39,832 nt of DNA. It comes from a virus (Duplodnaviria; Caudoviricetes). The notes under the pieces were generated by a model. The model saw nothing but the letters and a program-made list of their open reading frames with translations. It did no database searches and was not told the origin of the DNA. Where the stretch lies: positions 1-39,832 of the IMG/VR virus record IMGVR_UViG_3300025296_000045, one strand, 5' to 3'. Position numbers and translations under genes: made by a program. Positions 22,267-37,950 of the stretch are shown here, one piece after another (within the stretch, counting starts at the first letter, position 1; each line of letters opens with the position of its first letter).

Positions 22267-22320
22267 ATATAACACTACGCTAAGTTGGGACGCAGAGCGC
22301 CCACTAGCTACTTGTTATGC
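22267..22320 (+). repeat. attC-like site 1 (head subfamily, 54 bp)
   Basis: ATATAAC-ACTAC-GCT[A]AGT[T]GGG[A]CGC...GCGCCCACTAGC-TACTT-GTTATGC. Confidence 0.88.
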
Positions 22321-22536
22321 GGCACAAATGCCATACGGCTTTCCGCGGGTGCTTTTCCACTCTGCAATAACTTCTTCTACATCAGCATTAGCACCTATAG
22401 AAAAACCAGCTCCGTTAAAATCAAATGTAACGTAAGCAACTTGCCATAACTCAGCTTTTTGCTTTGCTTCTACCACCGCTTTTTCAACTTCTGTTCCTAC
22501 TAAAAATTCTACTTTAATTGTCATACTACTTTTCAT
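22315..22536 (-). CDS. Cassette-borne hypothetical protein
   Basis: GGAG RBS; stop TAA lies in the attC core. Confidence 0.8.
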   Translation of the reverse strand: MKSSMTIKVEFLVGTEVEKAVVEAKQKAELWQVAYVTFDFNGAGFSIGANADVEEVIAEWKSTRGKPYGICAA

Positions 22537-22552
22537 TATAGTCTCCAGTGCC

Positions 22553-22611
22553 GCATAACAACGGCATTAAATCGGACGGCACTACGTTTGCCGTTTATGC
22601 TAAGGTTATGT
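22553..22611 (+). repeat. attC-like site 2 (59 bp)
   Basis: GCATAAC-AACGG-CAT[T]AAA[T]CGG[A]C...GCCGTTTATG-CTAAG-GTTATGT. Confidence 0.9.
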
Positions 22612-22842
22612 GGATTGTCGCTTTCTAATAAATCCGTCAACATCGCCACACATTACCTTTCCGCTGTACTGAAATTTATTTTTACTAGGCCAGTAATCTA
22701 ATCGTTTTCCATTCAGTGTGCGCGACCAATGCCATTCTGTGTGTAAATTCCAACCTTCTTTGCTTGCGCTTTCAAGATTTCGTTTCTTTCTGTCTTTATT
22801 TAACTGCTTTAAAAATTTAAAGTCTTCTGCCATATCACCCAT
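22606..22842 (-). CDS. Cassette-borne hypothetical protein (start corrected to MGDMAEDF)
   Basis: AAGGAG RBS; LDYWPSKNKF motif; stop in attC core. Confidence 0.8.
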   Translation of the reverse strand: MGDMAEDFKFLKQLNKDRKKRNLESASKEGWNLHTEWHWSRTLNGKRLDYWPSKNKFQYSGKVMCGDVDGFIRKRQST

Positions 22843-22863
22843 TGATTTTCTCCTTAAATATCC

Positions 22864-22933
22864 ACATAACAACGGCTATCAAATGACACGTAACCGCTAC
22901 GCGTTTCCTTAGCATCTGTAGCTAAGGTTATGT
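22864..22933 (+). repeat. attC-like site 3 (70 bp)
   Basis: ACATAAC-AACGG-CTA[T]CAAATG[A]C...GCATCTGTAG-CTAAG-GTTATGT. Confidence 0.82.
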
Positions 22934-23176
22934 TACTAAACCAATCTCGTGTAATTTAACCTGTGCATTATGCAAACTCTCTTTATCCCAATGATCGGCA
23001 GGCATTAAATTATCTTTGTGGTTAATATCTCGCATAGCATTAATTTCATCTATCGCCATATCTAACTCGCCCATTAGGCTATCCACCAAACTAATTAACT
23101 CCACCTGTGAAACGTGGTAATTATCGCGCTGCTTTAAAACTGTTTTATAACATCTCTCTAAGCTATCTTTATTCAT
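22928..23176 (-). CDS. Hypothetical protein
   Basis: AAGGA RBS; stop TAA abuts attC 3. Confidence 0.75.
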   Translation of the reverse strand: MNKDSLERCYKTVLKQRDNYHVSQVELISLVDSLMGELDMAIDEINAMRDINHKDNLMPADHWDKESLHNAQVKLHEIGLVT

Positions 23177-23239
23177 TGTTTATTATCCTTGTTGATTAGA
23201 CTCATCTGTTCAATTCCTTGTTTGCGTTAAGTTGAAATA

Positions 23240-23284
23240 ACTTTAGCAAATACATTTGACACTGTAAAGCGTTTAAGTTAAATT
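23240..23284. promoter_or_regulatory. Overlapping divergent sigma70 promoters
   Basis: Plus TTGACA-17-TAAATT (23256-23284); minus TTTACA-17-TAAAGT. Confidence 0.65.
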
Positions 23285-23313
23285 AAGTACAGTTAATTAA
23301 ATAAGGAAAAACA

Positions 23314-23529
23314 ATGAAGCCATTAACAGACGCACAGCAAAAGATATTGAATTTTATTAAAGACTTTATCGAATACAATAGATACCCGCCAACATCAAAG
23401 GAGATAAAAGAGCATTTTAAATTTAACTCAATAAATGCAGCTTACGAGCATTTAGGCTGGATAGAAAAGAAAGGTTACATAAAGCGAACTCCTAGAGTCG
23501 CACGCTCTATTGTGGTTTTGCAGGCATAA
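23314..23529 (+). CDS. LexA DNA-binding-domain-only protein
   Basis: LT..QQ.I..FI......YPPT..EI...F.F.S.NAA.EHL....KKGYI; no peptidase domain. Confidence 0.85.
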   Translation: MKPLTDAQQKILNFIKDFIEYNRYPPTSKEIKEHFKFNSINAAYEHLGWIEKKGYIKRTPRVARSIVVLQA

Positions 23530-23584
23530 AAAATGCGCTACCACCAAGTAAGCGCACTAATTAATAAGACAAGGTAACTATAAC

Positions 23585-23773
23585 ATGTTCAAACAAAACT
23601 ATATAAACATATTTGAAAACGCTGGCGGGAACATAACAGTAGCTTACGCGACTTGTGGGGATGACGCTTTACAAATAAATGAGGTTGAGGTCGTGTCGCT
23701 AGATAAAGCCGATCTTCACACTATAGGGAGTGTGCTTAATAATATTGCTGATTCTATTGTTCAAGAGGTTTAG
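23585..23773 (+). CDS. Hypothetical protein
   Basis: ORF with AAGGT RBS in replication operon. Confidence 0.6.
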   Translation: MFKQNYINIFENAGGNITVAYATCGDDALQINEVEVVSLDKADLHTIGSVLNNIADSIVQEV

Positions 23774-23776
23774 TCA

Positions 23777-24475
23777 ATGTGTACGTTCATAAAGGCTTAC
23801 AGAAGTGAAACAGCGTCTTTTTTGGACTTTAATCCAAACGCTAACCACTTACTAAACGTGATAGCAAGAAGGGCAAGGAGAACGCCTTGTAATCTAAATA
23901 ACCTAGCTGTAGGTGAGTGTTTTATAGGTTTTAAATCGGTTGGTTTGACAGAGCAACAGTACAGAACAGCAAAAAAACACCTTCAAAAAATAGACTTAGT
24001 TTCGTTTCGTGTCGCCAGAAAGTTAACGGGTGGTGTAACGTCTGGTGTAACGGTCGCAAAGCTAATGGATTCGAGGGTTTACGATATAAATACAAGTGAG
24101 GGTAACGCCACGGCAACGCCAACCCAACGCCAACCTAACGCCAACCTAACGAGTAATAAGAATGTTAAGAATGAAAAGAATAAAGATATATGTCAGCAGG
24201 TAGCTGACGAGTTCAATAATTATTTAGGTGACGAATTGTCGTCTGTGGTTAAAGTTACTGATAAACGCAAAGCTGGTATACGTGGTTGTATTGCTCAGAT
24301 GAAAGGAACAGATCACGACTTTACAAAAATAGAAGCATGGATAGGTTTATTCGACTATATTAAAAAGTCAGATTTTCTAATGGGAAGAAAGTCAGATTGG
24401 AGCATGAGCTTTGATTTTTTAGTTAACAAATCTAATCTATTAAAAATTATCGAGGGACAATACGAGAATGAATAA
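23777..24475 (+). CDS. Replication initiator (lambda O-like)
   Basis: wHTH-like N-terminus, internal iteron linker, SDFLMG..W..SFDFL...N..KIIEGQY C-terminus; upstream of DnaB. Confidence 0.8.
   Translation: MCTFIKAYRSETASFLDFNPNANHLLNVIARRARRTPCNLNNLAVGECFIGFKSVGLTEQQYRTAKKHLQKIDLVSFRVARKLTGGVTSGVTVAKLMDSRVYDINTSEGNATATPTQRQPNANLTSNKNVKNEKNKDICQQVADEFNNYLGDELSSVVKVTDKRKAGIRGCIAQMKGTDHDFTKIEAWIGLFDYIKKSDFLMGRKSDWSMSFDFLVNKSNLLKIIEGQYENE
24104..24190 (+). repeat. Putative replication origin: 11-bp iterons plus AT-rich tract
   Basis: AACGCCACGGC AACGCCAACCC AACGCCAACCT AACGCCAACCT AACG, then three AAGAAT at 9-bp period. Confidence 0.75.
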
Positions 24476-25853
24476 AGTAATCCAGCCGCCAAACAATCAC
24501 GAGTCAGAGCAAGTTATCCTTGCTAGCTTGTTGAGAGACTCAGGCCACCAAACATGCAGAGAGGTTATGGATAGCGTTGCTAGCGATGATTTCTATAACC
24601 GAGCACATAGCGTTATCTACAAAGCAATTAAACAACTCATTGATAAAAAAATAAATCCTGACTTTGTGGCTATAGACGATCACTTATCGAAATCTAATGA
24701 TAATTTTGATTTTGGCGGGTTGACGTATCTCGCTGAAATACAGCGGTCGTTCATATCTCACAGTATGTTATCAGGAGCAGTGGCTACAGTTAAACGCACT
24801 AAGTCTGCAAGGGATTTGTTAAGCATTAGTTTTACAGTTAACGAACAGTCTAACGCTGGCGTAGACCCTGACGAAATAATCAGAGGCGTAGAAGACGGAA
24901 TAAAAGAAATATCAAGCAAGTCTGCAGCAAAAGACATAAGCCATATTTCAGACTTCGGCGAGCAATGGCTAGACGAGTTCGAACGAAACATTGAGAACCG
25001 AGGTGGCATTAGTGGATTAGCTACAGGGATAGCTGAATTAGATGAAAGGCTCTCAGGCTTCGATAGAGAAGGTTTATTTGTTTTGGCTGGTCGTCCGTCT
25101 ATGGGTAAGACGTTATTAGCCCAGACAATCATTGAGAACGTTTCTCGACGAGATTCAGAGCAATCAATGTTCTTTTCGTTAGAGATGAGCGGCAAACAGG
25201 TTTTTCAAAGGTTTGTTTCTAAAATATCTGGAGTGTGTCCTAAAAAAATACGATCAGGTGTAGACGTTAACAATGACGACTGGGGGAAAATAGCGAACGC
25301 TATAGAGCATTTAAACACTAGCGGAATTTATCTTGATACTGACCAAAAACTTTCTGTTGATCAAATACGCGCCAGGGTACGTAGAAGAATAAACAAAGCA
25401 GGTAAGCAATCTTTAATTGTTATTGATTACCTTGGATTAATGAAAAAGCCAAAAGCAGATAGAAACGACATTGCTATTGGAGAAATAACCAGTTCATTAA
25501 AAAGCTTAGCGAAAGAAATAGAAACCCCTATTTTATTATTAGTTCAAGGCTCGAGAGCGATGGACAAAACCAAACGTCCGACAATGAGTGACTTAAAAGA
25601 TTCGTCATCAATCGAAGCTGATGCAGATGTGGTTATGTTTGTTCACCGCGAAGAAGTCATTGATCCAGAGACAGAGTTAAAAGGCGTCACTGAATTAATA
25701 ATAGCTAAAGATAGGCATAACGACGGTAACGGAACAGTTTATTTGAAAAAGGTTTCAGGTGGATTTATGACAATGAATCAAGACGAGGTAGCAACGCTAG
25801 ATCACCTTGAGAATATGAGATTGAAGCCTGTTAAGAAAAAAGGATATATGTAA
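24468..25853 (+). CDS. dnaB: Replicative DNA helicase, DnaB family
   Basis: AGRPSMGKT, FSLEM, IVIDYLGLM and DLKDSSSIEADAD motifs. Confidence 0.95.
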   Translation: MNKVIQPPNNHESEQVILASLLRDSGHQTCREVMDSVASDDFYNRAHSVIYKAIKQLIDKKINPDFVAIDDHLSKSNDNFDFGGLTYLAEIQRSFISHSMLSGAVATVKRTKSARDLLSISFTVNEQSNAGVDPDEIIRGVEDGIKEISSKSAAKDISHISDFGEQWLDEFERNIENRGGISGLATGIAELDERLSGFDREGLFVLAGRPSMGKTLLAQTIIENVSRRDSEQSMFFSLEMSGKQVFQRFVSKISGVCPKKIRSGVDVNNDDWGKIANAIEHLNTSGIYLDTDQKLSVDQIRARVRRRINKAGKQSLIVIDYLGLMKKPKADRNDIAIGEITSSLKSLAKEIETPILLLVQGSRAMDKTKRPTMSDLKDSSSIEADADVVMFVHREEVIDPETELKGVTELIIAKDRHNDGNGTVYLKKVSGGFMTMNQDEVATLDHLENMRLKPVKKKGYM

Positions 25854-25865
25854 CCAGTATAATAG

Positions 25866-25894
25866 AAAAAAAAGGAGCTCAATGGCTCCTTTTT
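25866..25894. terminator. Bidirectional intrinsic terminator
   Basis: A8-GGAGC-tcaatg-GCTCC-T5 between convergent genes. Confidence 0.85.
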
Positions 25895-25920
25895 ACAATC
25901 ACTACCTTTATATGTGGTTG

Positions 25921-26148
25921 TTAAAACTCTAAGCTTGTTGCTAATTTAAGTTCGGCGCTCTTATCTTTCCATTCGTTCAATTTTGATTGATAACAAGATA
26001 TAAAAACATCTTCTAGCCTTACGTGTTTTACGCCTACTACGCCTACATCGACAAATCCTACACCGAAATAAAGGCTATCAAAAACCTGAGATTTGAAAGC
26101 TTCATTCCCGAATGCTTTATCTAAAATTTCTTTGCTTACTATAGCCAT
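25921..26148 (-). CDS. Hypothetical protein
   Basis: AAGGA RBS. Confidence 0.65.
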   Translation of the reverse strand: MAIVSKEILDKAFGNEAFKSQVFDSLYFGVGFVDVGVVGVKHVRLEDVFISCYQSKLNEWKDKSAELKLATSLEF

Positions 26149-26171
26149 AACAATTCCTTAATAGTTAATCT

Positions 26172-26369
26172 TTATCGTTTCAACACGAACACAAATAGAA
26201 ACAGCCAAGCAGACACAACACAAGCGAAGATGATAGCCTTGCTTGGTTTGTAATAAACTCCAAACTTGGTTAAATACAAATGAATAATTAACTCCAATCG
26301 TGAACAATCAAATTTAAAAAACATTACTAGAATTAAAATGCCAGCTGCCATAGTTGTTAATTCAATCAT
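26172..26369 (-). CDS. Small membrane protein (2 TM)
   Basis: Two hydrophobic segments; GAGGA RBS. Confidence 0.65.
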   Translation of the reverse strand: MIELTTMAAGILILVMFFKFDCSRLELIIHLYLTKFGVYYKPSKAIIFACVVSAWLFLFVFVLKR

Positions 26370-26381
26370 ATCTATATCCTC

Positions 26382-26720
26382 TTAAATAGTGGTTTTTAAA
26401 GGCTTTAACGCTTCCTGTATAGCCTCTGAAAAACTACAACCTCCATTGTAGAACTTGACTTCAAAATCTATGCTAAGGTCTTTATTTTCAGATGATGTAT
26501 ATATATCGTCATATGGGTTTATTTCCTTGGTTTCTACCGTGTAAACAATTCCATTGTGTACGATTGCACACCGATAAAATTGATCGTTAAAAAAATCCAA
26601 AGCATCTTCGTAACAATCTGGTATTTCTTGCCCTTCATTCAAAAGATATTCGTTAACAAAATTCTCAACGTTTTTGCCTGTAGGAATTAACTTGCCTTTT
26701 TTATGTTCAGTATCACTCAT
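26382..26720 (-). CDS. Hypothetical protein (start corrected to MSDTEHKKG)
   Basis: GGAG RBS; FYNGGCSFSEA motif. Confidence 0.7.
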   Translation of the reverse strand: MSDTEHKKGKLIPTGKNVENFVNEYLLNEGQEIPDCYEDALDFFNDQFYRCAIVHNGIVYTVETKEINPYDDIYTSSENKDLSIDFEVKFYNGGCSFSEAIQEALKPLKTTI

Positions 26721-26755
26721 TTCTATTTCTCCATATATTTTAAACATAGGTGTCA

Positions 26756-26906
26756 TTAGATACGTTTGTCATGGATGGGGTTACTATCCTACTAAGTATC
26801 ATTAACCGTTAAATAACATAAATCAGTATCAACATAACTTTTCGCATCCTTGCAGGTAGTCCACACCCAACACCATGACATTTTCGTTGTTTGTCCGCGT
26901 ATCTAA
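26756..26906 (-). ncRNA. Candidate structured non-coding element
   Basis: Nested helices TTAGATACG/CGTATCTAA and TGTCATGG/CCATGACA in a gap with no ORF in the track. Confidence 0.4.
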
Positions 26907-27000
26907 ACGTCGATTTATATTGAGTTATTACATATTTGCTAATTTACAGTTTTAGCTAAACCGTTAGGAATTTTTACAAGATGCCAATTAACTTGGCTAA

Positions 27001-27124
27001 GTGGTGTGAATCAGAAATAAAAAAGGCTTTACAGATATCTCTGGTCGAACGCTAAAGATTGGGAGTCAATAGCCAGAAATACCTATAAAACCTTCTTGTT
27101 ACATGAGTTCGACACCACCTAACG
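27001..27124 (-). ncRNA. Candidate small RNA / attenuator
   Basis: 22-bp stem (27023-27044 with 27073-27094) whose four non-Watson-Crick pairs are all G-U on minus strand; U tract follows. Confidence 0.6.
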
Positions 27125-27130
27125 AATACA

Positions 27131-27159
27131 ATTATATTATTTTACCTCCTTGCTTTCAA
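27131..27159 (-). promoter_or_regulatory. Near-consensus sigma70 promoter
   Basis: TTGAAA-17 nt-TATAAT. Confidence 0.75.
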
Positions 27160-27391
27160 GCTTGATTTTTATTAAGGCTTTAATATTATCTCTAATCGCC
27201 ATTAATTCACCTTCGGTGTACGAGCATTCAGAAGCATGAACAGCTTTGCATTCTCCATGCGAAGATCTCTCATGCCAATCAGCCTCGTCTTTAGTAAATA
27301 AACCAGCTAAAAATGAGAATTCGGTATAGCCACAGCTATTCGGTTTGTAATAATAACCACCCTTTCTAATAAAATAACACTTGTCACTCAT
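27137..27391 (-). CDS. Hypothetical protein
   Basis: YYKPNSCGYT...AGLFT..EA motif seen in phage early proteins. Confidence 0.7.
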   Translation of the reverse strand: MSDKCYFIRKGGYYYKPNSCGYTEFSFLAGLFTKDEADWHERSSHGECKAVHASECSYTEGELMAIRDNIKALIKIKLESKEVK

Positions 27392-27541
27392 CTACTTATT
27401 CTCTGCTTGTTTATTAAACTGAGAATTACTAAATTCATAATACATCGCTCTGATAAAATCATTATCCCCACCGCTTAACTCACCAGTTTCAACGACAAAG
27501 TGTATAAACTTTCTTACAGCCATTAGTTGCTCTTCACTCAT
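27392..27541 (-). CDS. Small hypothetical protein (49 aa, MSEEQLMAVRKF...)
   Basis: Hand-translated; exactly fills the gap with TAATG coupling. Confidence 0.6.
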   Translation of the reverse strand: MSEEQLMAVRKFIHFVVETGELSGGDNDFIRAMYYEFSNSQFNKQAENK

Positions 27542-27741
27542 TACCGCACCTTTACATTATCAGGGTGCGCATAAGACACACCGATTTTAGAGCACATATT
27601 GCGTACCTGAGTTAAGTTTTTACCGGTTCTTGCGCATATGTCTTGAATAGGCTTTTTGCCAGCTAGCCTTAATACGCATAGTTTCTCAGCGTCTGACCAT
27701 TCATTTTTAATTTGCTGTTTACTTTTTTGATAAGTGTACAT
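27541..27741 (-). CDS. Small HTH protein
   Basis: WSDAE...IQDICARTGKNLTQVRN; GAGGA RBS before MYTYQ. Confidence 0.6.
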   Translation of the reverse strand: MYTYQKSKQQIKNEWSDAEKLCVLRLAGKKPIQDICARTGKNLTQVRNMCSKIGVSYAHPDNVKVR

Positions 27742-27743
27742 GA

Positions 27744-27890
27744 TTATTCCTCTATCCAATCGTTTTCTAAAAGCTCTAGTTCAACCAATTCCTTTTGAGG
27801 CTCTATATACCCCTGAACAACCATTACAGCCTCTTCTATAATTGGTAAGCGTAATTCTTTTACTGATTCGTCTGTTTGTTCGTTAATCAT
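27744..27890 (-). CDS. Small acidic hypothetical protein (48 aa)
   Basis: Hand-translated MINEQTDESVKEL...; GGAG RBS. Confidence 0.55.
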   Translation of the reverse strand: MINEQTDESVKELRLPIIEEAVMVVQGYIEPQKELVELELLENDWIEE

Positions 27891-28218
27891 GGTCATTCTC
27901 CGTCAAAAGGTTTTTAATGTGGTCTTCTCTTTGCTGTATTTTTTCTTTAGCTAAATCCTTTATTCCATCATAAAGCTCAATCGGTACTTCAATAAATTTT
28001 TCATCAGTCCACCCTTGTGAATACGATCTAACTCTTGCTTTTATAGATTTAACGAATGATATAAACAACCCATGTTCACCTCTGTCACTCATACCAGGAA
28101 ATGAAACCTTATCCATAGCATCAATCAATGCTTTCAACTTAATTAGTTCGTCAGTGTTGTATTTTATGGTTTTGGATAAGTGCTCTCTATCCTCTAGGGT
28201 TTTGTACAAATCCATCAC
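27883..28218 (-). CDS. Hypothetical protein
   Basis: AAGGAG RBS. Confidence 0.7.
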   Translation of the reverse strand: MMDLYKTLEDREHLSKTIKYNTDELIKLKALIDAMDKVSFPGMSDRGEHGLFISFVKSIKARVRSYSQGWTDEKFIEVPIELYDGIKDLAKEKIQQREDHIKNLLTENDHD

Positions 28219-28306
28219 TCTTCTCCTTTATAATCATTACCCACTAACTTCTCGAAAAAATAAAATGTATCTTCTTGCCAGTTGTTTAGCTTAATTATTA
28301 GTTGAA

Positions 28307-28456
28307 TCATTTCTTTTTCACCTTTTTATATCTAGTCATAATCATTTCGTTAACAACAGACTGCTTGTTAGCGCCTAGGTTACCTTTTTCTTTTTCGTCC
28401 TCTACAACGGCCTCTAACATGCGGTGAACGTTATCTAATAGTTTTACTTGCTTCAT
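28307..28456 (-). CDS. Small ribbon-helix-helix-like regulator (start MKQVKL)
   Basis: KQVKLLDNVHRML strand-helix pattern; AAGGA RBS; next to divergent promoters. Confidence 0.55.
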   Translation of the reverse strand: MKQVKLLDNVHRMLEAVVEDEKEKGNLGANKQSVVNEMIMTRYKKVKKK

Positions 28457-28485
28457 ATGTATCCTTATTCGTTGTTGATGATTGA

Positions 28486-28549
28486 AGTTTACTCGAATTA
28501 AAATAAAAGTCAAATAAAAGTTGACTCTATTTTAAAATAAGTCTACTAT
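28486..28549. promoter_or_regulatory. Divergent sigma70 promoters with palindromic operator
   Basis: Plus TTGACT-17-TACTAT (28521-28549) containing GACT-c-TATTTTAAAATA-AGTC; minus TTGACT-16-TAAACT. Confidence 0.65.
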
Positions 28550-28580
28550 TACTCCATCGAAACGAAAACGAGCAAACAAA

Positions 28581-28736
28581 ATGAATTGTTATATAGCAGA
28601 TCAAATAGCGGCACACTGTAACCAGGAAGAAGTTTTTTGTAGTGAGTGTGGTGGCAATATGTATGAGTCTGAATTTGATAGTGATGTTTTGGAATGTTCT
28701 GAATGTGATAATACTTATGTTAAGGAAGAAGAATAA
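28581..28736 (+). CDS. Small zinc-ribbon protein (51 aa)
   Basis: Hand-translated; CSECGG...LECSEC. Confidence 0.65.
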   Translation: MNCYIADQIAAHCNQEEVFCSECGGNMYESEFDSDVLECSECDNTYVKEEE

Positions 28737-28927
28737 TGATTAGGGCAAAGATTGAATTTGATCAAGGCAAGATAGCTACAGCTATAGCAGAAGAAGTACA
28801 GAAGAGCTTGGATTCTATGGAATGCTTTGATGGTCTGACAGATAAACAGAAGCAGGATGTATTTGAAACTGTTCATTATGAGGTTAGTGATTTTTTCAGA
28901 GAAAGTAACGGCATGGAGTTGGATTAA
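28736..28927 (+). CDS. Hypothetical protein
   Basis: TAATG coupling; stop abuts attC 4. Confidence 0.7.
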   Translation: MIRAKIEFDQGKIATAIAEEVQKSLDSMECFDGLTDKQKQDVFETVHYEVSDFFRESNGMELD

Positions 28928-28980
28928 CCTTAATTGTTAAACGGCTAGCTTTGCTAGTCCGATTCAATTGGTTGTTATGT
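28922..28980 (-). repeat. attC-like site 4 (59 bp, slightly irregular)
   Basis: Minus: ACATAAC-AACCA-ATTGAA[T]CGG[A]CTAGC-aaa-GCTAGCCGTTTAAC-AATTAAG-GTTAATC. Confidence 0.78.
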
Positions 28981-29009
28981 GTTTTAACTGGAGTTGATAG
29001 GAGAATGAA

Positions 29010-29189
29010 ATGAAATTATATGTAAAAGTTGGAAGAGTTGAGCTTGAGTATAGTGAGTCTACAGATTGTGGCAATTACCCGAAAGTAACAAGCAAAGATA
29101 GTTACGAAAACGGAACAAAAAGCGACAGATTACTTGAGTTTATAAAAGAGATGGCAGACAAAGCAGCTGAAATAGAAAAAGACACATAA
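29010..29189 (+). CDS. Cassette-borne hypothetical protein (59 aa, MKLYVKVGRVELEY...)
   Basis: Hand-translated; AGGAG RBS; stop in attC core. Confidence 0.75.
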   Translation: MKLYVKVGRVELEYSESTDCGNYPKVTSKDSYENGTKSDRLLEFIKEMADKAAEIEKDT

Positions 29190-29245
29190 CCTTTTAAATA
29201 AGCGGGCGAGGCTGTTTGCGCTCCGACTTTATTTTGTTGTTATGT
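29184..29245 (-). repeat. attC-like site 5 (62 bp)
   Basis: Minus: ACATAAC-AACAA-AAT[A]AAG[T]CGG[A]GCG...CGCCCGCTTATT-TAAAAG-GTTATGT. Confidence 0.88.
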
Positions 29246-29270
29246 TGCACTTACACAAGAGGAAAGATTG

Positions 29271-30026
29271 ATGCACTACGATGAACAAAGAGAAAAAGAA
29301 CAATTGAAGTCGTGGCTAATGCAAGGTGACTGCTTAGAGCGAATGAAAGAAATACCAGACGGATCAGTTGATATGATATTGACAGACCCACCTTATGGAA
29401 CAACCGCTTGTAAGTGGGATTCTATCATCCCATTAGAGCCAATGTGGGAGCAGCTGAAGCGGGTTATTAAGCCTAATGGGGCGATTGTTTTATTTGGTTC
29501 AGAACCTTTTTCAAGTGCTTTAAGAATGAGCAATACCAAGATGTTTAAGCACGATCTAATATGGAACAAAAACACATCTTCACCCGGCCTCGCCAAAATA
29601 AGACCGATGCCATCATTCGAAAATATGATGATATTTGGTGACGGCCTGATAACTTACAACCCACAAATGGAAGCGGGAAAACCATACAGGGACGGCAGAT
29701 CGTCTGATGAACGAAACCACCAGAACGAGCACAAGTACGGCTACAAAGGGCGCAAGGCGATAAACAATAAGGGGACTAGGTACCCCAAATCAATAGTTAA
29801 TATCACAAGGGTAAACCGAAAGGGGCAACACCCAACACAAAAGCCAGTCGCACTCATGGAATACCTAATCAAAACCTACACCAACGAGACCGAAACTGTT
29901 TTGGATTTCACTATGGGCAGTGGCACAACAGGCGTTGCATGTAAGAACCTAAACCGGAAATTTATCGGAATAGAGTTAGACGAAGAATACTTCAAGATTG
30001 CACAAGGGCGTATTAGTGCAACATAA
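29271..30026 (+). CDS. Cassette-borne DNA methyltransferase (N6-A/N4-C, beta class)
   Basis: DPPY catalytic motif precedes HPTQKP and DFTMGSGTT SAM-binding motif. Confidence 0.93.
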   Translation: MHYDEQREKEQLKSWLMQGDCLERMKEIPDGSVDMILTDPPYGTTACKWDSIIPLEPMWEQLKRVIKPNGAIVLFGSEPFSSALRMSNTKMFKHDLIWNKNTSSPGLAKIRPMPSFENMMIFGDGLITYNPQMEAGKPYRDGRSSDERNHQNEHKYGYKGRKAINNKGTRYPKSIVNITRVNRKGQHPTQKPVALMEYLIKTYTNETETVLDFTMGSGTTGVACKNLNRKFIGIELDEEYFKIAQGRISAT

Positions 30027-30075
30027 CCTTTTAAATAACGGGCGTTACACGTCCCAGTTTATTTGGTTGTTATGT
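30021..30075 (-). repeat. attC-like site 6 (55 bp)
   Basis: Minus: ACATAAC-AACCA-AAT[A]AAC[T]GGG[A]CGT-gta-ACGCCCGTTATT-TAAAAG-GTTATGT. Confidence 0.9.
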
Positions 30076-30109
30076 TACCGTTACAAATACTGAACTGGAG
30101 AAATAAATA

Positions 30110-30451
30110 ATGGGTGATCCAAAATACACACCGAAAGCAAATGGGATAATGCACGAAGATGGTTATATGCTGCCAGATGATGAGCCGTTAATGATATTAC
30201 GGGGTAAAGACATCGGCGCGTTAAATAATATTGTTGATTATATAGAGATGCTACAAGAGCAAGTACCGCAAACACCTACAATAGTTAGCCACTTGAAATC
30301 ATCAAGCGAGCGACTATTGGCATTTTACAACTACCAAGTAGAAAACCCAGAATTACAAAGCGTTGGATGTTCAAGGCGATCACATATTGACTCGTTGTAT
30401 TTCTTGGGTAGAGCAGCCAAGAAATTAGTTGAACTTGGTTTAGTAACATAA
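30110..30451 (+). CDS. Cassette-borne hypothetical protein
   Basis: GGAG RBS; PDDEPLMILRGKD motif; stop in attC core. Confidence 0.8.
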   Translation: MGDPKYTPKANGIMHEDGYMLPDDEPLMILRGKDIGALNNIVDYIEMLQEQVPQTPTIVSHLKSSSERLLAFYNYQVENPELQSVGCSRRSHIDSLYFLGRAAKKLVELGLVT

Positions 30452-30499
30452 CAATGAGTTAGCAGGCGCGTAGCGTCCTAGCTAAACGAGGTGTTATAG
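30446..30499 (-). repeat. attC-like site 7 (head subfamily, 54 bp)
   Basis: Minus: CTATAAC-ACCTC-GTT[T]AGC[T]AGG[A]CGC-tac-GCGCCTGCTAAC-TCATT-GTTATGT. Confidence 0.9.
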
Positions 30500-30507
30500 G
30501 AGCATCT

Positions 30508-30639
30508 ATGAACAAACAAACAGTAACGGTAACAATTAAAGGTCAGCCAGTTTATTTTAACGGTGATGAATTAACGTCACCGGTTGAACAGGCTATTGAA
30601 TATTTGAAAGAGTTAAGCGAACAGGAGCAGGAATTCTAA
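30508..30639 (+). CDS. Small hypothetical protein (43 aa)
   Basis: Hand-translated MNKQTVTVTIKG...; AGGAG RBS; TAATG coupling to erf. Confidence 0.6.
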   Translation: MNKQTVTVTIKGQPVYFNGDELTSPVEQAIEYLKELSEQEQEF

Positions 30640-31205
30640 TGCAAAAGTCAGAATCAATAAAGGCGATAGCGTCAGCCTTGAATAAAGCACAGAATGAAAT
30701 GTCAGGGGCGCACAAAGCAAAAGATAACCCCTTCTTTAAATCTAAGTATGCTGACTTAGCTGAGGTAGTTAAAGCTGTTAAAGAGCCTTTTGCTAATAAT
30801 GGATTGAGCTATGTTCAGTTCCCTATTGAGAAAGACGGACGAATAGGCATTGAAACTATATTGATGCACGAAAGCGGCGAGTTTATGAGTAATGAATTTA
30901 CAGTACAGTTAACTAAACAGGATGCGCAAGGAGCTGGATCAGCTATTACATATTGTCGCAGATACGCTTTACAGTCTGTTGCTGGCATTCCTAGTGAAGA
31001 TGATGATGGCAATGCTGCTTCACCTCAGCCAAATCAAAAACAAGATGACGATAAGCCTTGGTATGATGATTCAAACTGGGAAGTAGATAAACAAGGGGTA
31101 ACGAATGCAATCAAGGGAGGAACTCCTCCAGAACAAGTTATTAAGCAGATAGCTGGTAGCTTTAAAATCGCTAAAAAATACCGTGAAATGATTAAGGCAA
31201 TATAA
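30639..31205 (+). CDS. erf: ERF-family single-strand annealing protein
   Basis: NPFFKSKYADL, Q..GSAITY.RRYAL and EDDDGN motifs. Confidence 0.92.
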   Translation: MQKSESIKAIASALNKAQNEMSGAHKAKDNPFFKSKYADLAEVVKAVKEPFANNGLSYVQFPIEKDGRIGIETILMHESGEFMSNEFTVQLTKQDAQGAGSAITYCRRYALQSVAGIPSEDDDGNAASPQPNQKQDDDKPWYDDSNWEVDKQGVTNAIKGGTPPEQVIKQIAGSFKIAKKYREMIKAI

Positions 31206-31206
31206 A

Positions 31207-31692
31207 ATGAACTTACGTGAATTGACAGAAGATCAAGACGCTATATTGGCGCAAGTTGAAAATGGTGATTTTACGATTGATGATGTAAGTGATCACCTTG
31301 ATATGATACGAGAGGATAGAGAGCAAAAAATCGAAAACTATCTTCATGTTATTAATCGACTAACAAGCGAAGAAATAACAGTTACAAAAGAAATCGACAG
31401 ACTCCAGGATATTAGATTAGCCAAAGAAAAGGCGCTAAAGAATATTAAAGAATGGCTGTTGATAAGCCTTAAGGATGGCGAAAAGTACGAATTTAACTTG
31501 TTTAAGGTTACTCGAGTAAAAGGTCGTGAAGTACTCCAAGTGAATAGCACTAACGATATCCCTGAGAAGTACATAACAATAAAAATGACTAACACTATAG
31601 ATAAGCGCGGCATGTTAACTGATTTAAAAAATGGCGCTGAAATAAAAGGCGCTGAACTATCAACTGGTAAATCAAGCTTAAGAATTAAATAG
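31207..31692 (+). CDS. Siphovirus Gp157-family protein
   Basis: EIDRL...L..IK..L and IPEKY..IDK..L..G.EI.GAEL....SLRIK. Confidence 0.85.
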   Translation: MNLRELTEDQDAILAQVENGDFTIDDVSDHLDMIREDREQKIENYLHVINRLTSEEITVTKEIDRLQDIRLAKEKALKNIKEWLLISLKDGEKYEFNLFKVTRVKGREVLQVNSTNDIPEKYITIKMTNTIDKRGMLTDLKNGAEIKGAELSTGKSSLRIK

Positions 31693-31701
31693 GAGAGTAA
31701 G

Positions 31702-32202
31702 ATGGGAAGAGGAATAAACAAGGTAATCGTCGTCGGTAATTTAGGGCAAGATCCAGAAGTTCGCTTTATGCCAAACGGCGGCGCAGTAGCAAATTTTACA
31801 GTAGCAACTAGTGAGGCATGGAAAGACAAGCAGTCTGGTGAGCAAAAAGAAAAAACAGAATGGCATCGTATTGTAATCTATCAACGTTTAGCTGAGATTG
31901 CCGGTGAATATTTGAAAAAAGGTTCAAAGGTATATTTAGAAGGAAAGCTTCAAACGCGTAAATGGCAAAACCAGCAAGGCGCAGATCAATACACGACAGA
32001 GATCATCGTTAATGATATGCAAATGTTGGATTCGCGTAGTCAAGGTGGTTCACAACAACAAGGTCAAGGAGGATTTAATCAGGCGCCCGCACAACAGAAA
32101 GGAGGTTTCCAGCAGGCTGCACCACAGAAGCTACCAACAATGGCACAGCAACAAGGTGGATTTCAGCAGCAAGAACCTTTTGACGATGACATTGCATTTT
32201 AA
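31702..32202 (+). CDS. ssb: Single-stranded DNA-binding protein
   Basis: [19 protein letters not shown]...TEWHR; acidic DDDIAF tail. Confidence 0.97.
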
Positions 32203-32251
32203 GTTATATAAGCACCTGCTTAATGTGGGTGCAATCCTTTAAGGAGGTAAT

Positions 32252-32440
32252 ATGATTAGCCAAGTAACATTTATAGCTAAGAATGAAAAATGTACTAGCT
32301 TGCAGCCTAAGCGTTATTTGATTAACACAGATGATAAACATCTGGCATTAAGTAAAGGGTATCAGCTTTTAATGAAAGAGAAACATTGTGATTTATATAA
32401 AGCTTTGCCTGTTAAATTTTTAGATGTGCATGATGTGTAA
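32252..32440 (+). CDS. Hypothetical protein
   Basis: AAGGAGG RBS; stop abuts attC 8. Confidence 0.65.
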   Translation: MISQVTFIAKNEKCTSLQPKRYLINTDDKHLALSKGYQLLMKEKHCDLYKALPVKFLDVHDV

Positions 32441-32561
32441 CCTTAGCTTAATGGGTTGCGTAAAGTAACCATAAACGATTTAAAGGACACAGGAATAAAT
32501 ATTATGACCGAACTAGAAAAAACACTAACTGTTAGCAATCCCGTTGAAGCCGTTGTTAGTT
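32435..32561 (-). repeat. attC-like site 8 (127 bp, long loop)
   Basis: Minus: AACTAAC-AACGG-CTT[C]AACGGG[A]TTGC...GCAACCCATTAAG-CTAAG-GTTACAC. Confidence 0.82.
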
Positions 32562-32743
32562 GTGATGAACTGAAAGTTATATGTGACACTGTTGTTGAGC
32601 TAGCAAGAATAAGGCAGAAAGGCTGCAACCATTTATGTGTTGAGAATTTCGCTCAGCAATGTTTTGGGCAATTGCTTACAGAGTTACGGCTAAATAAAGA
32701 AGGCAAACTGAGAATATTCAACACAGAATTAGAGTCCAACTAA
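32504..32743 (+). CDS. Cassette-borne hypothetical protein starting inside attC 8 (MTELEKT...)
   Basis: AGGA RBS and the only in-frame ATG lie in the attC loop; stop in attC 9 core. Confidence 0.7.
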   Translation: MTELEKTLTVSNPVEAVVSCDELKVICDTVVELARIRQKGCNHLCVENFAQQCFGQLLTELRLNKEGKLRIFNTELESN

Positions 32744-32791
32744 CATGTAGCGCACAGGCGCAACGCGTCCTAGTGGCGCGTGGTGTTATGT
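32738..32791 (-). repeat. attC-like site 9 (head subfamily, 54 bp)
   Basis: Minus: ACATAAC-ACCAC-GCG[C]CAC[T]AGG[A]CGC-gtt-GCGCCTGTGCGC-TACAT-GTTAGTT. Confidence 0.88.
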
Positions 32792-32927
32792 AAATAACTA
32801 AAACCCGAATTAACGGGCGTCTTTAACAATCTCAGTATTAAATATCTACTGGCGGCGTTGGGTTTGGGTGTACGGGCGGTAAATCTGCCCTTACATTCAA
32901 CATTCATATTACAGCTAATTGCTGTCC

Positions 32928-33404
32928 TCATTGTTTTCCACCAAACACTTTTATGATTAGCGGCTCTAAATTTTTAACTGTTCTTTCGCCGAACAAGAAA
33001 CCTAACACTAAAATATTAATTACTATCAAAGCGGTTTGTTGTTGCTCTGAATAATCAGTAACAGTAGTAAACCATTTGAAGTCTAAGTACATCGTAAAGA
33101 ACCCCCATAAAGGACGCTGCAATCCACGCAAGAATAAAATAATCCTACCAATGAACGGAAGCTGCTTTAAATCGCTAGCTGTTCCCTCTTGGCTTTCTAT
33201 TCTCTTATCTAACTGCTTAGCTGATTCTGCTACAATGCTGCTAGCTTCAATTTCCTTCTGATGTAAAAACTTCTGTAAATTTAATTCAGTTTCGGCCTTT
33301 TGCTGCGGTGTCATATCTGGCGGAAAGTAAGACATTACACCTTCTTTGATTTCCTTGAATAATCCACCACCAACAAAGTCAGCGACCTTAGATAAGATGC
33401 TCAT
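32928..33404 (-). CDS. Putative holin (3TM-holin-like)
   Basis: Amphipathic N-terminus, RPLWG TM segment and VLGFLFGERT..K motif. Confidence 0.7.
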   Translation of the reverse strand: MSILSKVADFVGGGLFKEIKEGVMSYFPPDMTPQQKAETELNLQKFLHQKEIEASSIVAESAKQLDKRIESQEGTASDLKQLPFIGRIILFLRGLQRPLWGFFTMYLDFKWFTTVTDYSEQQQTALIVINILVLGFLFGERTVKNLEPLIIKVFGGKQ

Positions 33405-33635
33405 GTTATACGCCTGTAAATCCGTTACCCGTCACTCCTTCGTCAATAATTCCTTCATTTGTTGGTTTACATACACCGGGCGAGGTTGGCTCAAACATAA
33501 TGATACTCCTTATAAATTTTGTACAGTATACCACCAATATGTAAAGAATACATTACAACGATTTAGTTATAGATAATCGTTTTTTATGCGAATACGGTAT
33601 TTCACAATATTGTTATTTTTAATTATTCTTTGGTT

Positions 33636-33902
33636 ATGAAATCAAACATAGATAAGCAAATGTCACACATAAAATCACTAGAAACTTTAGTTAAATCTAA
33701 AGACATTAAAATAATAGAATTAGAGAAAGAAATATCAAGAATGAAGCGTTTTTATATGACTAGATACGAAAAGCTAGAAAAGGCTTTTGATTTTGAATAT
33801 AAACGCGCAGAGCTTCTTCAATACGATTTAAATATGGCTGATGATTTTATATCAGAGGTTTGTGATAAATACGCATTAAAATATTCTAGGAAACCATCAT
33901 AA
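33636..33902 (+). CDS. Coiled-coil hypothetical protein
   Basis: ORF; heptad pattern. Confidence 0.6.
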   Translation: MKSNIDKQMSHIKSLETLVKSKDIKIIELEKEISRMKRFYMTRYEKLEKAFDFEYKRAELLQYDLNMADDFISEVCDKYALKYSRKPS

Positions 33903-33911
33903 GGAAATATC

Positions 33912-34121
33912 ATGCTAAACGCATTAACAGTAAATAAAATATTAGGCGGTCAGTTATTGGCTATGCAAAAACCACCTGTATCTGATTGTTACAGTCAAGC
34001 TTTTAAGCGTAAAGTTTTAAACTGCGTTAAAGATACTGGCAGCTCAAGAGAAGCAAGCAGGGTTTTTGACCTACAACGCACGATGATAGATAGATGGGTT
34101 CGTGAAGATAATAGATACTAA
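33912..34121 (+). CDS. Small HTH protein
   Basis: YSQAFKRKVL...S.REASRVFDL....IDRWVR; stop abuts attC 10. Confidence 0.7.
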   Translation: MLNALTVNKILGGQLLAMQKPPVSDCYSQAFKRKVLNCVKDTGSSREASRVFDLQRTMIDRWVREDNRY

Positions 34122-34171
34122 CCCCAAGCTTAATGGTGCCGAAGGCATCCAATTACAGCGCCTTGTTAGGC
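34116..34171 (-). repeat. attC-like site 10 (56 bp)
   Basis: Minus: GCCTAAC-AAGGC-GCT[G]TAA[T]TGG[A]TGCC-ttc-GGCACCATTAAGC-TTGGG-GTTAGTA. Confidence 0.9.
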
Positions 34172-34193
34172 GTGAACGAACAGGAGAGATGAT

Positions 34194-34382
34194 ATGAAAA
34201 AACCAAAGGAATTAACAAGCTGGGACTTCTCTGATACTGAAATGGTGCCAGAGGGATACGACATGACAAGCATACCAAAGCTAACACAAGACAACTTTCG
34301 GACGCTTATAGATGAGCATAATAATCTGGTTGAAGTTGTTAATATGTTATGTGAAAAGCATGGTCTGATTTTTGACGACTAA
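34194..34382 (+). CDS. Cassette-borne hypothetical protein
   Basis: AGGAG RBS; stop in attC core. Confidence 0.78.
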   Translation: MKKPKELTSWDFSDTEMVPEGYDMTSIPKLTQDNFRTLIDEHNNLVEVVNMLCEKHGLIFDD

Positions 34383-34436
34383 CCTTTTAAATAAACTGCG
34401 AGCGTAGCGAAGTCAGATTTGATTTTGTTGTTATGT
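34377..34436 (-). repeat. attC-like site 11 (60 bp)
   Basis: Minus: ACATAAC-AACAA-AAT[C]AAA[T]CTG[A]C...GCAGTTTATT-TAAAAG-GTTAGTC. Confidence 0.9.
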
Positions 34437-34461
34437 TACCGCCACTGAAAGGATTGATAGA

Positions 34462-34650
34462 ATGAAAGATAAAGACGAAATGAATAGCTATAGCTACTAC
34501 AGAAAAAGCACTAAGCAATGGGTTTACGTCTGCGATGGTGTAGCAGAAAACACAAATTACATATTTAGATACTCACATAAATTTAAGTTTGTCGCATTTT
34601 GGGTGATGATTTTAAATATAGATAGCGACTTACTTGATTTAGTAACATAA
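34462..34650 (+). CDS. Cassette-borne hypothetical protein
   Basis: AAGGA RBS; stop in attC core. Confidence 0.72.
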   Translation: MKDKDEMNSYSYYRKSTKQWVYVCDGVAENTNYIFRYSHKFKFVAFWVMILNIDSDLLDLVT

Positions 34651-34700
34651 CCTCGCGCTAAGTTGTGAGGTACGAATCAAATTTAAGCGCCTTGTTATAT
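34645..34700 (-). repeat. attC-like site 12 (56 bp)
   Basis: Minus: ATATAAC-AAGGC-GCT[T]AAA[T]TTG[A]T...ACAACTTAGC-GCGAG-GTTATGT. Confidence 0.85.
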
Positions 34701-34721
34701 GGCAACTTAAGGAGACAAAGA

Positions 34722-34904
34722 ATGACCACTAAATATGAAATGAGATACAAAACTAACGGATATCCTTGGAAGGTATTTGACACATACAAAACAAAAGATG
34801 ATCCAGAGTTAATATGGCATTACAAAATGTACAGTAAAAGCAAAATAATTAAAGAAGTGGAAGTTATAGAGGTAATAACGACTAGAAATAAAATTGCCAT
34901 ATAA
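34722..34904 (+). CDS. Cassette-borne hypothetical protein (start corrected to MTTKYEMRY)
   Basis: TAAGGAG RBS; stop in attC core. Confidence 0.78.
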   Translation: MTTKYEMRYKTNGYPWKVFDTYKTKDDPELIWHYKMYSKSKIIKEVEVIEVITTRNKIAI

Positions 34905-34958
34905 CCATTTAAATAAACGGTGCAGCGTAGCAAGTCCGCTTTAATTTGCTTGTTATGT
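34899..34958 (-). repeat. attC-like site 13 (60 bp)
   Basis: Minus: ACATAAC-AAGCA-AAT[T]AAA[G]CGG[A]...CCGTTTATT-TAAATG-GTTATAT. Confidence 0.88.
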
Positions 34959-34982
34959 TGCGGACCAGATAGGAGAGGAAAA

Positions 34983-35243
34983 ATGAATTGTAAAGATTGT
35001 AAGTACTGGAGTGAGCGAGATCGGTACGAGGACGATAAAGATATTGACGTTAGAAAATGCACTAGAGTTAAAATGTTCTGGGATTGTACTGAGTGGGGTG
35101 ATGAAGATAACAACTACGAGCGAAGATTTACTAAGGCTGCTGAGAATAATAAGGCATTTGTTCAAGACGGCAGTGATTATATAGCGCACTTGTTAACGCT
35201 TGGTGATTTCGGGTGTAATCAATTTGAAGCCAAAGCAACATAA
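34983..35243 (+). CDS. Cassette-borne Cys-rich protein (start corrected to MNCKDCKYW)
   Basis: GAGGA RBS; CxxC...C...DFGC motif; stop in attC core. Confidence 0.8.
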   Translation: MNCKDCKYWSERDRYEDDKDIDVRKCTRVKMFWDCTEWGDEDNNYERRFTKAAENNKAFVQDGSDYIAHLLTLGDFGCNQFEAKAT

Positions 35244-35292
35244 CAATGAGTTAGTGGGCGACTCGTCGTCCCAACTCAACGAGGTGTTATGA
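35238..35292 (-). repeat. attC-like site 14 (head subfamily, 55 bp)
   Basis: Minus: TCATAAC-ACCTC-GTT[G]AGT[T]GGG[A]CGAC-ga-GTCGCCCACTAAC-TCATT-GTTATGT. Confidence 0.9.
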
Positions 35293-37602: not shown

Positions 37603-37950
37603 ATGAGTAATTTAACGCTAAGAAAATTTAACAAGATAATGGATCATAGAGATTCTATTCAGTCTGAAGGTGCTAGAGGTATTAGCTCCTTGGCTTCTTC
37701 TGTTGGTAAAGCTATAGAGTTTTGCATTCTTTTAGAAGAAGATCCTGACGGTTATTTTGCAACTAACGGCGATAAAGAAGAAGTACGCCAAGACTTTACA
37801 TCAGTAATGAACTCTCTTAACGAAGTGCTACCCACTATTGCTTTAATAGAGCAACTTAGAAACGAAACTATAACTGTAGAGCAATTTAGAACGTCAACAG
37901 GAAAAGAAGGTTTCGACGTACAAGCCTATCAAGACTCATTGACGGGTTAA
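37603..37950 (+). CDS. Hypothetical protein (full-length copy)
   Basis: AGGA RBS; duplicate of 7-318. Confidence 0.8.
   Translation: MSNLTLRKFNKIMDHRDSIQSEGARGISSLASSVGKAIEFCILLEEDPDGYFATNGDKEEVRQDFTSVMNSLNEVLPTIALIEQLRNETITVEQFRTSTGKEGFDVQAYQDSLTG

Follow-up and report, generated by a model that had tools for sequence, protein, structure and literature searches.

The window analyzed here is the whole 39,832-nucleotide stretch of the IMG/VR virus record IMGVR_UViG_3300025296_000045 (Caudoviricetes), from a marine phage, and its subject is a set of small-gene arrays whose members are separated by hairpins resembling attC, the recombination site of integron cassettes. The record is rated 100% complete, and an overlap of ~2.2 kb between its ends leaves a genome unit of ~37.6 kb. 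PHROG matches identify a podovirus-type virion module (terminase, portal, capsid, Ad3, Hc3, and DNA ejection) and a lambdoid early region (O-like initiator, DnaB, ERF, a Gam-like protein, SSB, NinB, and NinG). Between 22267 and 35292 lie 14 attC-type hairpins (s1 to s14; Table 1) in four arrays, the three on the left on one strand and the other 11 on the opposite strand. The GenBank phage set contained no near match to the 22-36 kb part of the window or to array 4; array 2 matched in pieces of its methyltransferase gene only and s13 gave only 26-nt chance matches. The textbook order is gene then attC, with the non-coding strand recombined; the phage arrays appear to have the reverse build.

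The hairpins were checked with a descriptor scanner for AAC...GTT box pairs that scores the bulge pattern alike in both polarities. It recovered 13 of the 14 sites, against three matches in 30 dinucleotide shuffles (0.1 per shuffle), none of them with the final A found in the window. The sites have the R'' and R' boxes of attC (RYYYAAC and GTTRRRY, with 0-3 departures from the consensus), spacers of 5 nt and 5-6 nt, and paired L'' and L' arms; they are 54-70 nt long, apart from s8 at 127 nt, and fall into several sequence families. On the strand opposite to the genes, the bases at L'' positions 4, 8, and 12 (equivalent to 16, 20, and 24) are unpaired in 11 sites, and those at positions 4 and 11 (16 and 23) in two, s3 (22864) and s8 (32435); in both groups a 6-bp stem lies between the first and last extrahelical base. 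The last bulge is A in antisense, i.e., T on the coding strand, in 13/13 scanned sites. The site missed by the scan, s4 (28922-28980), was read by eye and has the boxes, the final A, and an irregular L arm. A preliminary description of this DNA had placed all 14 sites antisense to their genes, with three bulges in 11, two in the other three, and a last bulged base that is always A. The polarity, the three-bulge class, and the final A were reproduced; the two-bulge assignment holds for s3 and s8 and is only approximate for s4.

Nivina et al. described the bottom strand of attC as the one with bulges 16, 20, and 23/24 on the arm opposite AAC and a conserved T, and reported that inverting the bulges switches the strand used (PMC5027507). 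The window bulges follow this rule, which gives the coding strand bottom-strand geometry: in the left three sites the geometric top strand is plus and the genes are minus, and the right 11 are the mirror image. T occupies position 23/24 of the coding strand in 13/13 window sites and in 103/109 sites of other loci, and A occupies position 20 in 10/11. With bacterial attC the sites share the order R'-L'-VTS-L''-R'' (VTS, variable terminal structure), 5-6 nt spacers, bulges at 16/(20)/23-24, the conserved T, the AAC crossover, and complementary ends (PMC5027507). Folding of both strands, a check proposed in the preliminary description, discriminated poorly; the coding strand was the more stable in just 9/14 sites, so folding energy alone does not pick the strand. 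In a published integron fragment of Vibrio anguillarum (MK672802), used as a control, the scanner placed 16/16 sites top-on-plus, and the longer open reading frame (ORF) was on the top strand in 10/13 units; it also called canonical polarity for the sites of phage TJE1 (2/2). At gathering thresholds, the hairpins had no Rfam match. The geometry, together with the exchange breakpoints described below, suggests that the coding strand is the strand recombined. The VCR (Vibrio cholerae repeat) is a conserved repeat of ~125 nt. The preliminary label "VCR-type" fits the spacing of the bulges and not their identities (N16/A20/T24 on the coding strand) or the site lengths. At positions 20 and 24 the bulges are closer to attCoxa2 (G16, A20, T24) than to VCR (G16, T20, T24) (PMC5027507).

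The genes are organized around the same boxes. All 14 genes in front of a hairpin stop at a TAA inside its first box, directly before the A-C bond cut by IntI (TAA/C; the slash marks the cut), and the first junction of each array is the stop codon of the core gene in front. As previously claimed (ten of ten inverted cassettes), in all 10 single-gene units the geometric bottom strand is the sense strand, and each unit has a purine-rich leader resembling a ribosome-binding site (RBS). Canonical cassette order, a top-strand ORF with attC downstream, occurs in 0/10, and the longest antisense ORF starting with ATG measures 0-54 amino acids (aa) per unit. These short antisense frames count against the idea that host cassettes were captured backwards and phage-sense ORFs then arose on their antisense strand. 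Phage H101, with reading frames on both strands, would fit that history, but a genuine methyltransferase and homologues of phage genes found in free form are among the sense genes, and no match was found between 72 phage unit proteins and 63 host unit proteins; the idea is largely refuted and retains next to no probability.

A cluster of attC sites lacking integron-integrases (CALIN) is defined by two or more same-strand attC sites within 3-4 kb and no integrase nearby (10.1101/030866, PMC9892861), and the arrays correspond to that definition. A complete integron has intI on the element, and no match to a tyrosine recombinase (PF00589) was found in the record, rated 100% complete. Apart from G16, each structural test classes the sites as attC-like; together they make up a CALIN and neither an integron nor canonical cassettes. 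The plan of an array is a core gene ending in TAA/C, a repeated unit of hairpin, RBS, and small gene ending in TAA/C, a short anchor hairpin, and then the next core gene or a terminator. R'' is a perfect complement of the first box of the next site in 9/10 window units over 7 nt, extending to 8-13 nt. Pooled over phage loci, 46/69 units had complementary ends, compared with a mean of 15.4 and a maximum of 25 in 5000 permutations, and the V. anguillarum array had 13/13. Such ends are required by a circle closed with one hairpin and are silent on which hairpin belongs to the gene; exchange would proceed through circular intermediates. The pooled unit, pair, and Mantel counts given here leave out L254 and L255 (the window's own contig) and the duplicates L117, L249, L155, L240, and L259 (of L096, L102, L087, and L094), and the pair and Mantel comparisons also leave out the published control records.

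In all arrays the stop codon lies inside the stem, and the next RBS follows 16-34 nt on or lies within the hairpin. This layout would suit hairpins that act mainly in mRNA (translation coupling, processing, or weak termination), their likeness to attC being ancestral or incidental. G-T wobbles favor the coding strand (4 vs 0 in the window and 34 vs 3 elsewhere, in a slightly biased scoring), a pattern that fits folded DNA too. A role in mRNA leaves the TAA/C borders, the complementary unit ends, and the IntI-type bulge spacing unexplained, the hairpins belong to no Rfam family, and we consider it very improbable. A promoter scan of the window stayed at chance level (39 vs 50 expected).

The preliminary description had proposed that each mobile unit is attC followed by the gene in transcription order, and comparison with close relatives bears this out. 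Locus L324 (contig G004:C541) is 97.8% identical to the window over a 1.8-kb core and encodes an identical SSB. Between the 62-aa core gene and the operon end, s8 and the 79-aa gene are swapped in L324 for another hairpin and a 238-aa gene; identity ends one base past the first TAAC and returns at the TAAC of s9, which is itself unchanged. The swap is one exact unit replacement. Hairpins s1 and s7 are also unchanged in L324 and keep their downstream core genes, and the gene in front of each differs. Pieces from public sequencing runs have the same borders: s10 and its gene are intact in runs X5 and X6 (pieces 34119-34386), in X2 and X3 the methyltransferase end runs straight into s11 and its leader, hairpins other than s12 stand behind the stop at 34650 in X2, X3, and X6, and X6 has the joints 28924>30024 and 32442>32741. 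These pieces are examples among those listed, not counts; none of the pieces listed from L324 or the runs kept a gene and its downstream hairpin while replacing the upstream hairpin, and the runs listed include no RNA runs. Across 120 sites, similarity of hairpin bodies was correlated with that of the downstream 30 nt (Mantel r 0.18, p 0.002) and not with that of the upstream 30 nt (r 0.02, p 0.18); with the 42 sites matching the search patterns removed, the downstream correlation was r 0.10, p 0.002 (78 sites). In addition, 7/7 pairs with a similar upstream gene end are followed by unrelated hairpins, six of these coming from four methyltransferase contigs. Collectively, the L324 swap, the run borders, and the asymmetric Mantel tests support the upstream hairpin as the one that travels with the gene. 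It is probable, on sequence comparison, that these are attC-type hairpins whose bottom strand is the coding strand and that the exchanged unit is a hairpin plus the gene behind it, cut at TAA/C, likely by the IntI of the host.

Exchange without any site-specific recombinase was also considered, with the phage ERF, NinB, and NinG recombining short homologies in hairpins and gene tails. The phage encodes all three and no tyrosine recombinase was found in it; hairpin families share arms of 15-20 nt, and some swaps keep the shared 3' arm only (as in a piece from 34421). The bases shared at the s9 and s1 borders are just TAAC or a few more (4-5), and a homologous route has no need of complementary unit ends, of the T23/24 bulge, or of compensatory changes in the stems; we judge it quite improbable as the general mechanism.

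Several observations weigh against exchange of hairpin-plus-gene units by an integron integrase or limit its reach. G16 is present in 3/13 window sites; it occurs in 2/16 V. anguillarum and 33/103 Colwelliaceae sites, and given this scarcity in the controls it is not strictly defining for attC. Several X6 joints have a short side of 43-54 letters, with the sequence between not known, and L324 and run X6 may be one population and hence not independent. Phage H101, whose sites have been assayed, is mixed, its annotated genes lying on the bottom strand and two of its units also carrying top-strand frames. The link between a gene and its upstream hairpin is itself weak. In 19 bystander pairs whose bodies are at least 80% alike, R'' is shared by three and differs in 16, and the similarity of their downstream flanks stays at the background level (0.51 vs 0.48). 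Unrelated bodies were found in seven of the 35 pairs that have similar downstream leaders; the methyltransferase unit occurs with five different upstream bodies (in a body-sharing comparison across loci, covering methyltransferase neighbors and s3/s6 bodies, that still includes near-duplicates); and in X2 and X6 a different body precedes the gene at 34462. Bodies of the s8 type, which bring an RBS, an ATG, and ~20 codons, form in-frame fusions with unrelated ORFs in three places, the window, L247, and L092. The similar bodies with different R'', the five methyltransferase bodies, and the s8 fusions indicate that hairpins are also re-joined at R''. A gene evidently does not keep one hairpin for long, and the upstream link is loose over longer times. 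Top-strand recombination, which cuts in R'', is rare but real for some sites (PMC5027507), and re-joining at R'' could proceed by this route, through homologous recombination of the ERF type within the 3' arm that hairpins share, or through formation of new cassettes.

These data can be taken further, to a three-part mosaic in which the body forms one module and the gene unit another, with cuts about equally frequent at AA/C on one side and G/TT on the other, and hairpins are independent of genes. Near-identical bodies do join unrelated leaders from within R'', the s8-type fusions occur, X3 has loose ends at 32560, and the methyltransferase gene in X2 has both neighbors replaced. Against this, near-identical strains often keep the upstream hairpin with the gene (s10, s11, s1, s7, and s9), the opposite association was not seen among the pieces listed, the Mantel tests are asymmetric, and the canonical V. 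anguillarum array likewise has similar bodies whose R'' is gene-specific, so this feature is not special to phages. We therefore regard the mosaic as unlikely. Two other observations were made at methyltransferase loci. In L271 (3141-3164), the leader and first codons of the methyltransferase cassette head an unrelated 90-aa gene with no hairpin in front, and in L270 (4948-5206) they head a methyltransferase gene that an early stop interrupts.

Each window array ends in one of four short, related hairpins with A after AAC (AAC-A), namely s1, s7, s9, and s14. Sites of the AAC-A class occupied the terminal position in 12/13 classifiable cases, three of which are L324 copies of window sites, vs 12/77 for AAC-C sites. 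In an independent pattern search covering eight more contigs, 10/11 AAC-A sites had no TAAC-ending gene behind them, and 6/8 other sites had one. The arms of these hairpins covary, with double-sided changes in 7/11 pairs and 96% of cells paired, as judged against a structure derived from the same sequences. Together these features suggest that the terminal hairpins are anchors, resident docking sites in place of attI. In L324 (4229-4511), the homologue of the 69-aa gene (34117) is followed by one cassette and then by s1 and the ninB operon; in the window, s1 and the ninB operon lie 12 kb from the 69-aa gene on the opposite strand, and run X6 has the same opposite-strand joint (22319/34114). 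An inversion of ~12 kb of the early region (22.3-34.1 kb) between opposed arrays is the likely explanation, one of its junctions having been seen.

Inverted polarity extends beyond this phage. It was found in 59/60 units of 25 other loci from viral and metagenome collections and also in eight further contigs. Among loci collected by ERF (80) and DnaB (4), an array was present in one case only (L073), and 4/79 methyltransferase loci had single sites, and one methyltransferase locus, L155, is a duplicate of L102. The phage SSB is 83% identical to that of Thalassotalea eurytherma, and a Colwellia bin holds a phage-like contig with seven phage-type hairpin sites, which points to a Colwelliaceae-like host. 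Array-bearing phage contigs were binned into bacterial metagenome-assembled genomes of differing genera (L127, L324, and L325 in G004; L117 in G003; L133 in G001); with such a spread, bin labels are unreliable for host assignment. In the family of T. eurytherma, intI is present in 42/61 genomes. Near intI, 61/78 Colwelliaceae units (18 regions) are canonical, eight have the longer ORF on the bottom strand, and nine fit neither pattern; the sample is small (18/47 intI matches, chosen for long contigs). None of 119 phage bodies was at least 85% identical to a body in the sampled Colwelliaceae arrays, and median site lengths are 98 nt in Colwelliaceae, 127 nt in Vibrio, and 60 nt in phages (97-129 nt in the V. 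anguillarum control). On the bottom strand, the base after AAC is G in 101/103 host and 16/16 V. anguillarum sites; in 119 phage sites it is C in 95, A in 16, and G in seven. The preliminary proposal of a separate phage-adapted cassette pool is thus backed by polarity, by the base after AAC (C or A vs G), and by the absence of shared bodies and genes, within a small host sample and for an inferred host. In T. eurytherma itself, a contig (L134:405-462) has a single phage-type hairpin beside housekeeping genes, 91-98% like s13-family bodies from other phage loci and followed by a phage-type leader and an 18-codon remnant; this is possibly a stray cassette insertion.

The base after AAC also counts against a host enzyme, as its difference between phage and host sites could mean that a different enzyme is used. 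The same architecture might then be served by an IntI relative carried by co-infecting phages, which would also account for the lack of shared bodies. No integrase was found in 12 related phage records (four under half complete), and a search of the viral collection with one Colwelliaceae IntI, which reaches close relatives only, gave one 58-aa fragment. A phage-borne enzyme is accordingly rather unlikely, and the host IntI, given that no integrase was found in these 12 records, is the simplest candidate. It would act on the folded coding strand.

The coding strand could be exposed for folding by lagging-strand replication or by transcription. The lagging-strand template favors attC folding (PMC5371416). 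Four 11-nt direct repeats at 24104-24147, inside the O-like initiator gene, are likely origin iterons, and hairpin polarity switches across this region. If the origin is assumed to lie there, all 14 bottom strands would belong to the lagging-strand template. Among seven other records with guessed origins, sites that are clear go with the strand of the genes, and the replication-polarity rule seems to be broken by some sites of G012, G013, and G014. These records did not confirm the lagging-strand placement. A leftward small-gene operon at 25921-28513 (minus strand) faces the predicted rightward fork and has no hairpins, unlike the four co-directional operons.

The origin of the cassettes can be approached through two window genes, of 78 and 82 aa, with homologues in L017 and L008 near which no hairpin was detected and whose last codons differ. 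Unrelated cassette genes also share tails before TAAC, two tails occurring 11 times each in 119 sites. The hairpin-free homologues and shared tails suggest that ordinary phage genes may acquire cassette ends; in such a conversion a phage gene would gain a hairpin and a complementary tail over its last codons. Recombination of bottom strand by bottom strand keeps polarity, so a normal bacterial cassette would land antisense in phage operons, which would keep the phage and host pools apart. Host cassettes, many of them anti-phage, would in this way come to lie antisense in phage operons, and phage cassettes would be antisense in host integrons. Such a firewall would tie in with the anti-phage genes stored in chromosomal integrons (10.1101/2024.07.02.601686). 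The combined scenario, a mirror-image marine-phage pool using host IntI, with anchor docking, gene-to-cassette conversion, a polarity firewall, and array recombination that flips the 12-kb region, is tentative and, taken as a whole, more doubtful than its core. A widespread reversed pool would mean that the mosaicism of "hypothetical genes" in phage early regions is partly site-specific, probably through a stress-induced host enzyme, and tools that assume co-orientation will assign hairpins to the wrong gene. The pairs of free and cassette genes and the hairpins re-joined at R'' provide material on how cassettes are made.

Phage CALINs were reported by Qi et al. in TJE1, P12002L, and PH101/H101, and five of six phage-borne attC were recombined by IntI1, the bottom strand above the top (PMC9892861). 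The window resembles these in having attC clusters without an integrase and an orphan N6/N4 methyltransferase as cargo, and differs in its 14 sites, its four arrays in early operons, its uniformly inverted polarity, its stop codons at the crossover, and its anchor class. Unlike the window, TJE1 and PH101 are described as typical arrays in the available part of that text, which does not mention inverted polarity (PMC9892861). H101 sites are similar in size and loop to those of the window, and all genes annotated at 72-82 kb lie on the listed bottom strand. H101 was considered as clean published proof of the inverted design and rejected as mixed; with top-strand leaders and frames in two units, it backs the geometry rule more than the inverted design. 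These two units (KR534323; L278:3971-4290 and 5379-5715) share a near-identical 90-nt top-strand leader with an RBS, and each has a reading frame that is not annotated and runs toward the annotated genes; one of these two frames contains an in-frame TAG. The two sites listed for P12002L were not recovered by the scanner, attC2 being without a clean first box; the listed bottom strand of attC1, which failed in the paper, is the gene strand (PMC9892861). Shewanella phage 3/49 had no site at the scanner threshold. A literature search, with most subscription journals out of reach, found no report of reversed gene-attC polarity in phages and phage CALINs only in Qi et al.

Relative to bacterial cassettes, the genes are antisense to the top strand and the hairpin leads, intI was not found, G16 is not conserved, and C or A follows AAC. 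Sedentary integrons of Colwelliaceae and Vibrio likewise have related bodies on unrelated genes and small genes of no known function, but opposite polarity and longer sites, and their bottom strand is mostly on the leading-strand template (PMC5371416). The inverted integrases of Cury et al. (10.1101/030866) are distinct from reversed gene-attC polarity. IntI also inserts cassettes at GWT attG sites outside integrons (10.1101/2022.09.11.507474), a possible route for founding an array at a phage stop codon; attG targets are double-stranded and unstructured, whereas the resident sites in the window are folded hairpins.

Table 1. Hairpins and genes of the four arrays (positions in the window; AAC-A, A after AAC; HTH, helix-turn-helix)
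Feature	Positions	Strand	Remarks
s1, anchor-class hairpin, 54 nt, AAC-A	22267..22320	-	Last of left array, before ninB operon; bottom strand = minus = coding
Cassette gene, 73 aa, no family	22315..22536	-	Stop TAA in first box of s1
s2, cassette hairpin, 59 nt	22553..22611	-	Upstream of 73-aa gene
Cassette gene, 78 aa	22606..22842	-	Hairpin-free homologue in L017, last codons differ
s3, cassette hairpin, 70 nt, bulges 16/23	22864..22933	-	Near-identical bodies with other genes in L102, L258
82-aa gene feeding left array	22928..23176	-	TAA = first junction; hairpin-free homologue in L008, C-terminus differs
63-aa gene	28736..28927	+	TAA = first junction of array 2
s4, irregular cassette hairpin, 59 nt	28922..28980	+	Similar body behind different gene in run X5
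Cassette gene, 59 aa, no family	29010..29189	+	
s5, cassette hairpin, 62 nt	29184..29245	+	
Cassette gene, orphan N6/N4 DNA methyltransferase, 251 aa	29271..30026	+	PF01555; other flanking hairpins on both sides in L097, L102, L243, L252, L270
s6, cassette hairpin, 55 nt	30021..30075	+	Identical body with other genes in L092
Cassette gene, 113 aa, no family	30110..30451	+	
s7, anchor-class hairpin, 54 nt	30446..30499	+	Before ERF-Gam-SSB operon
62-aa core gene	32252..32440	+	TAA = first junction of array 3
s8, long cassette hairpin, 127 nt	32435..32561	+	Holds RBS, ATG, and first ~19 codons of its own gene
Cassette gene, 79 aa	32504..32743	+	Replaced with s8 in L324; run X6 joins across same span
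s9, anchor-class hairpin, 54 nt	32738..32791	+	Operon end, before terminator-like stem 32803-32818
69-aa HTH gene	33912..34121	+	TAA = first junction of array 4; other hairpins behind in L324, X3, X6
s10, cassette hairpin, 56 nt	34116..34171	+	Travels with 62-aa gene behind
Cassette gene, 62 aa, no family	34194..34382	+	
s11, cassette hairpin, 60 nt	34377..34436	+	With leader, follows methyltransferase gene in X2, X3
Cassette gene, 62 aa, no family	34462..34650	+	Other hairpins behind in X2, X3, X6
s12, cassette hairpin, 56 nt	34645..34700	+	
Cassette gene, 60 aa, no family	34722..34904	+	
s13, cassette hairpin, 60 nt	34899..34958	+	
Cassette gene, 86 aa, no family	34983..35243	+	
s14, anchor-class hairpin, 55 nt	35238..35292	+	3' arm holds RBS-like GAGG and ATG of ninG (35289)

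Other features of the genome were noted beside the arrays. A stand-alone LexA DNA-binding domain of 71 aa (23314-23529, plus strand; PF01726, E 1e-21) heads the replication operon and could touch the host SOS regulon, which controls intI. The copies of the terminal overlap (1-2268 and 37633-39832) are 84-100% alike in parts and carry differing gene versions (323-1819 and 37955-39406), which suggests two strain variants within one assembly. Two non-coding stretches, 23518-23587 and 26961-27048, are conserved at the DNA level in other phages (L094 and L102; L008 and G001), had no Rfam match, and are possible regulatory sites or small RNAs.

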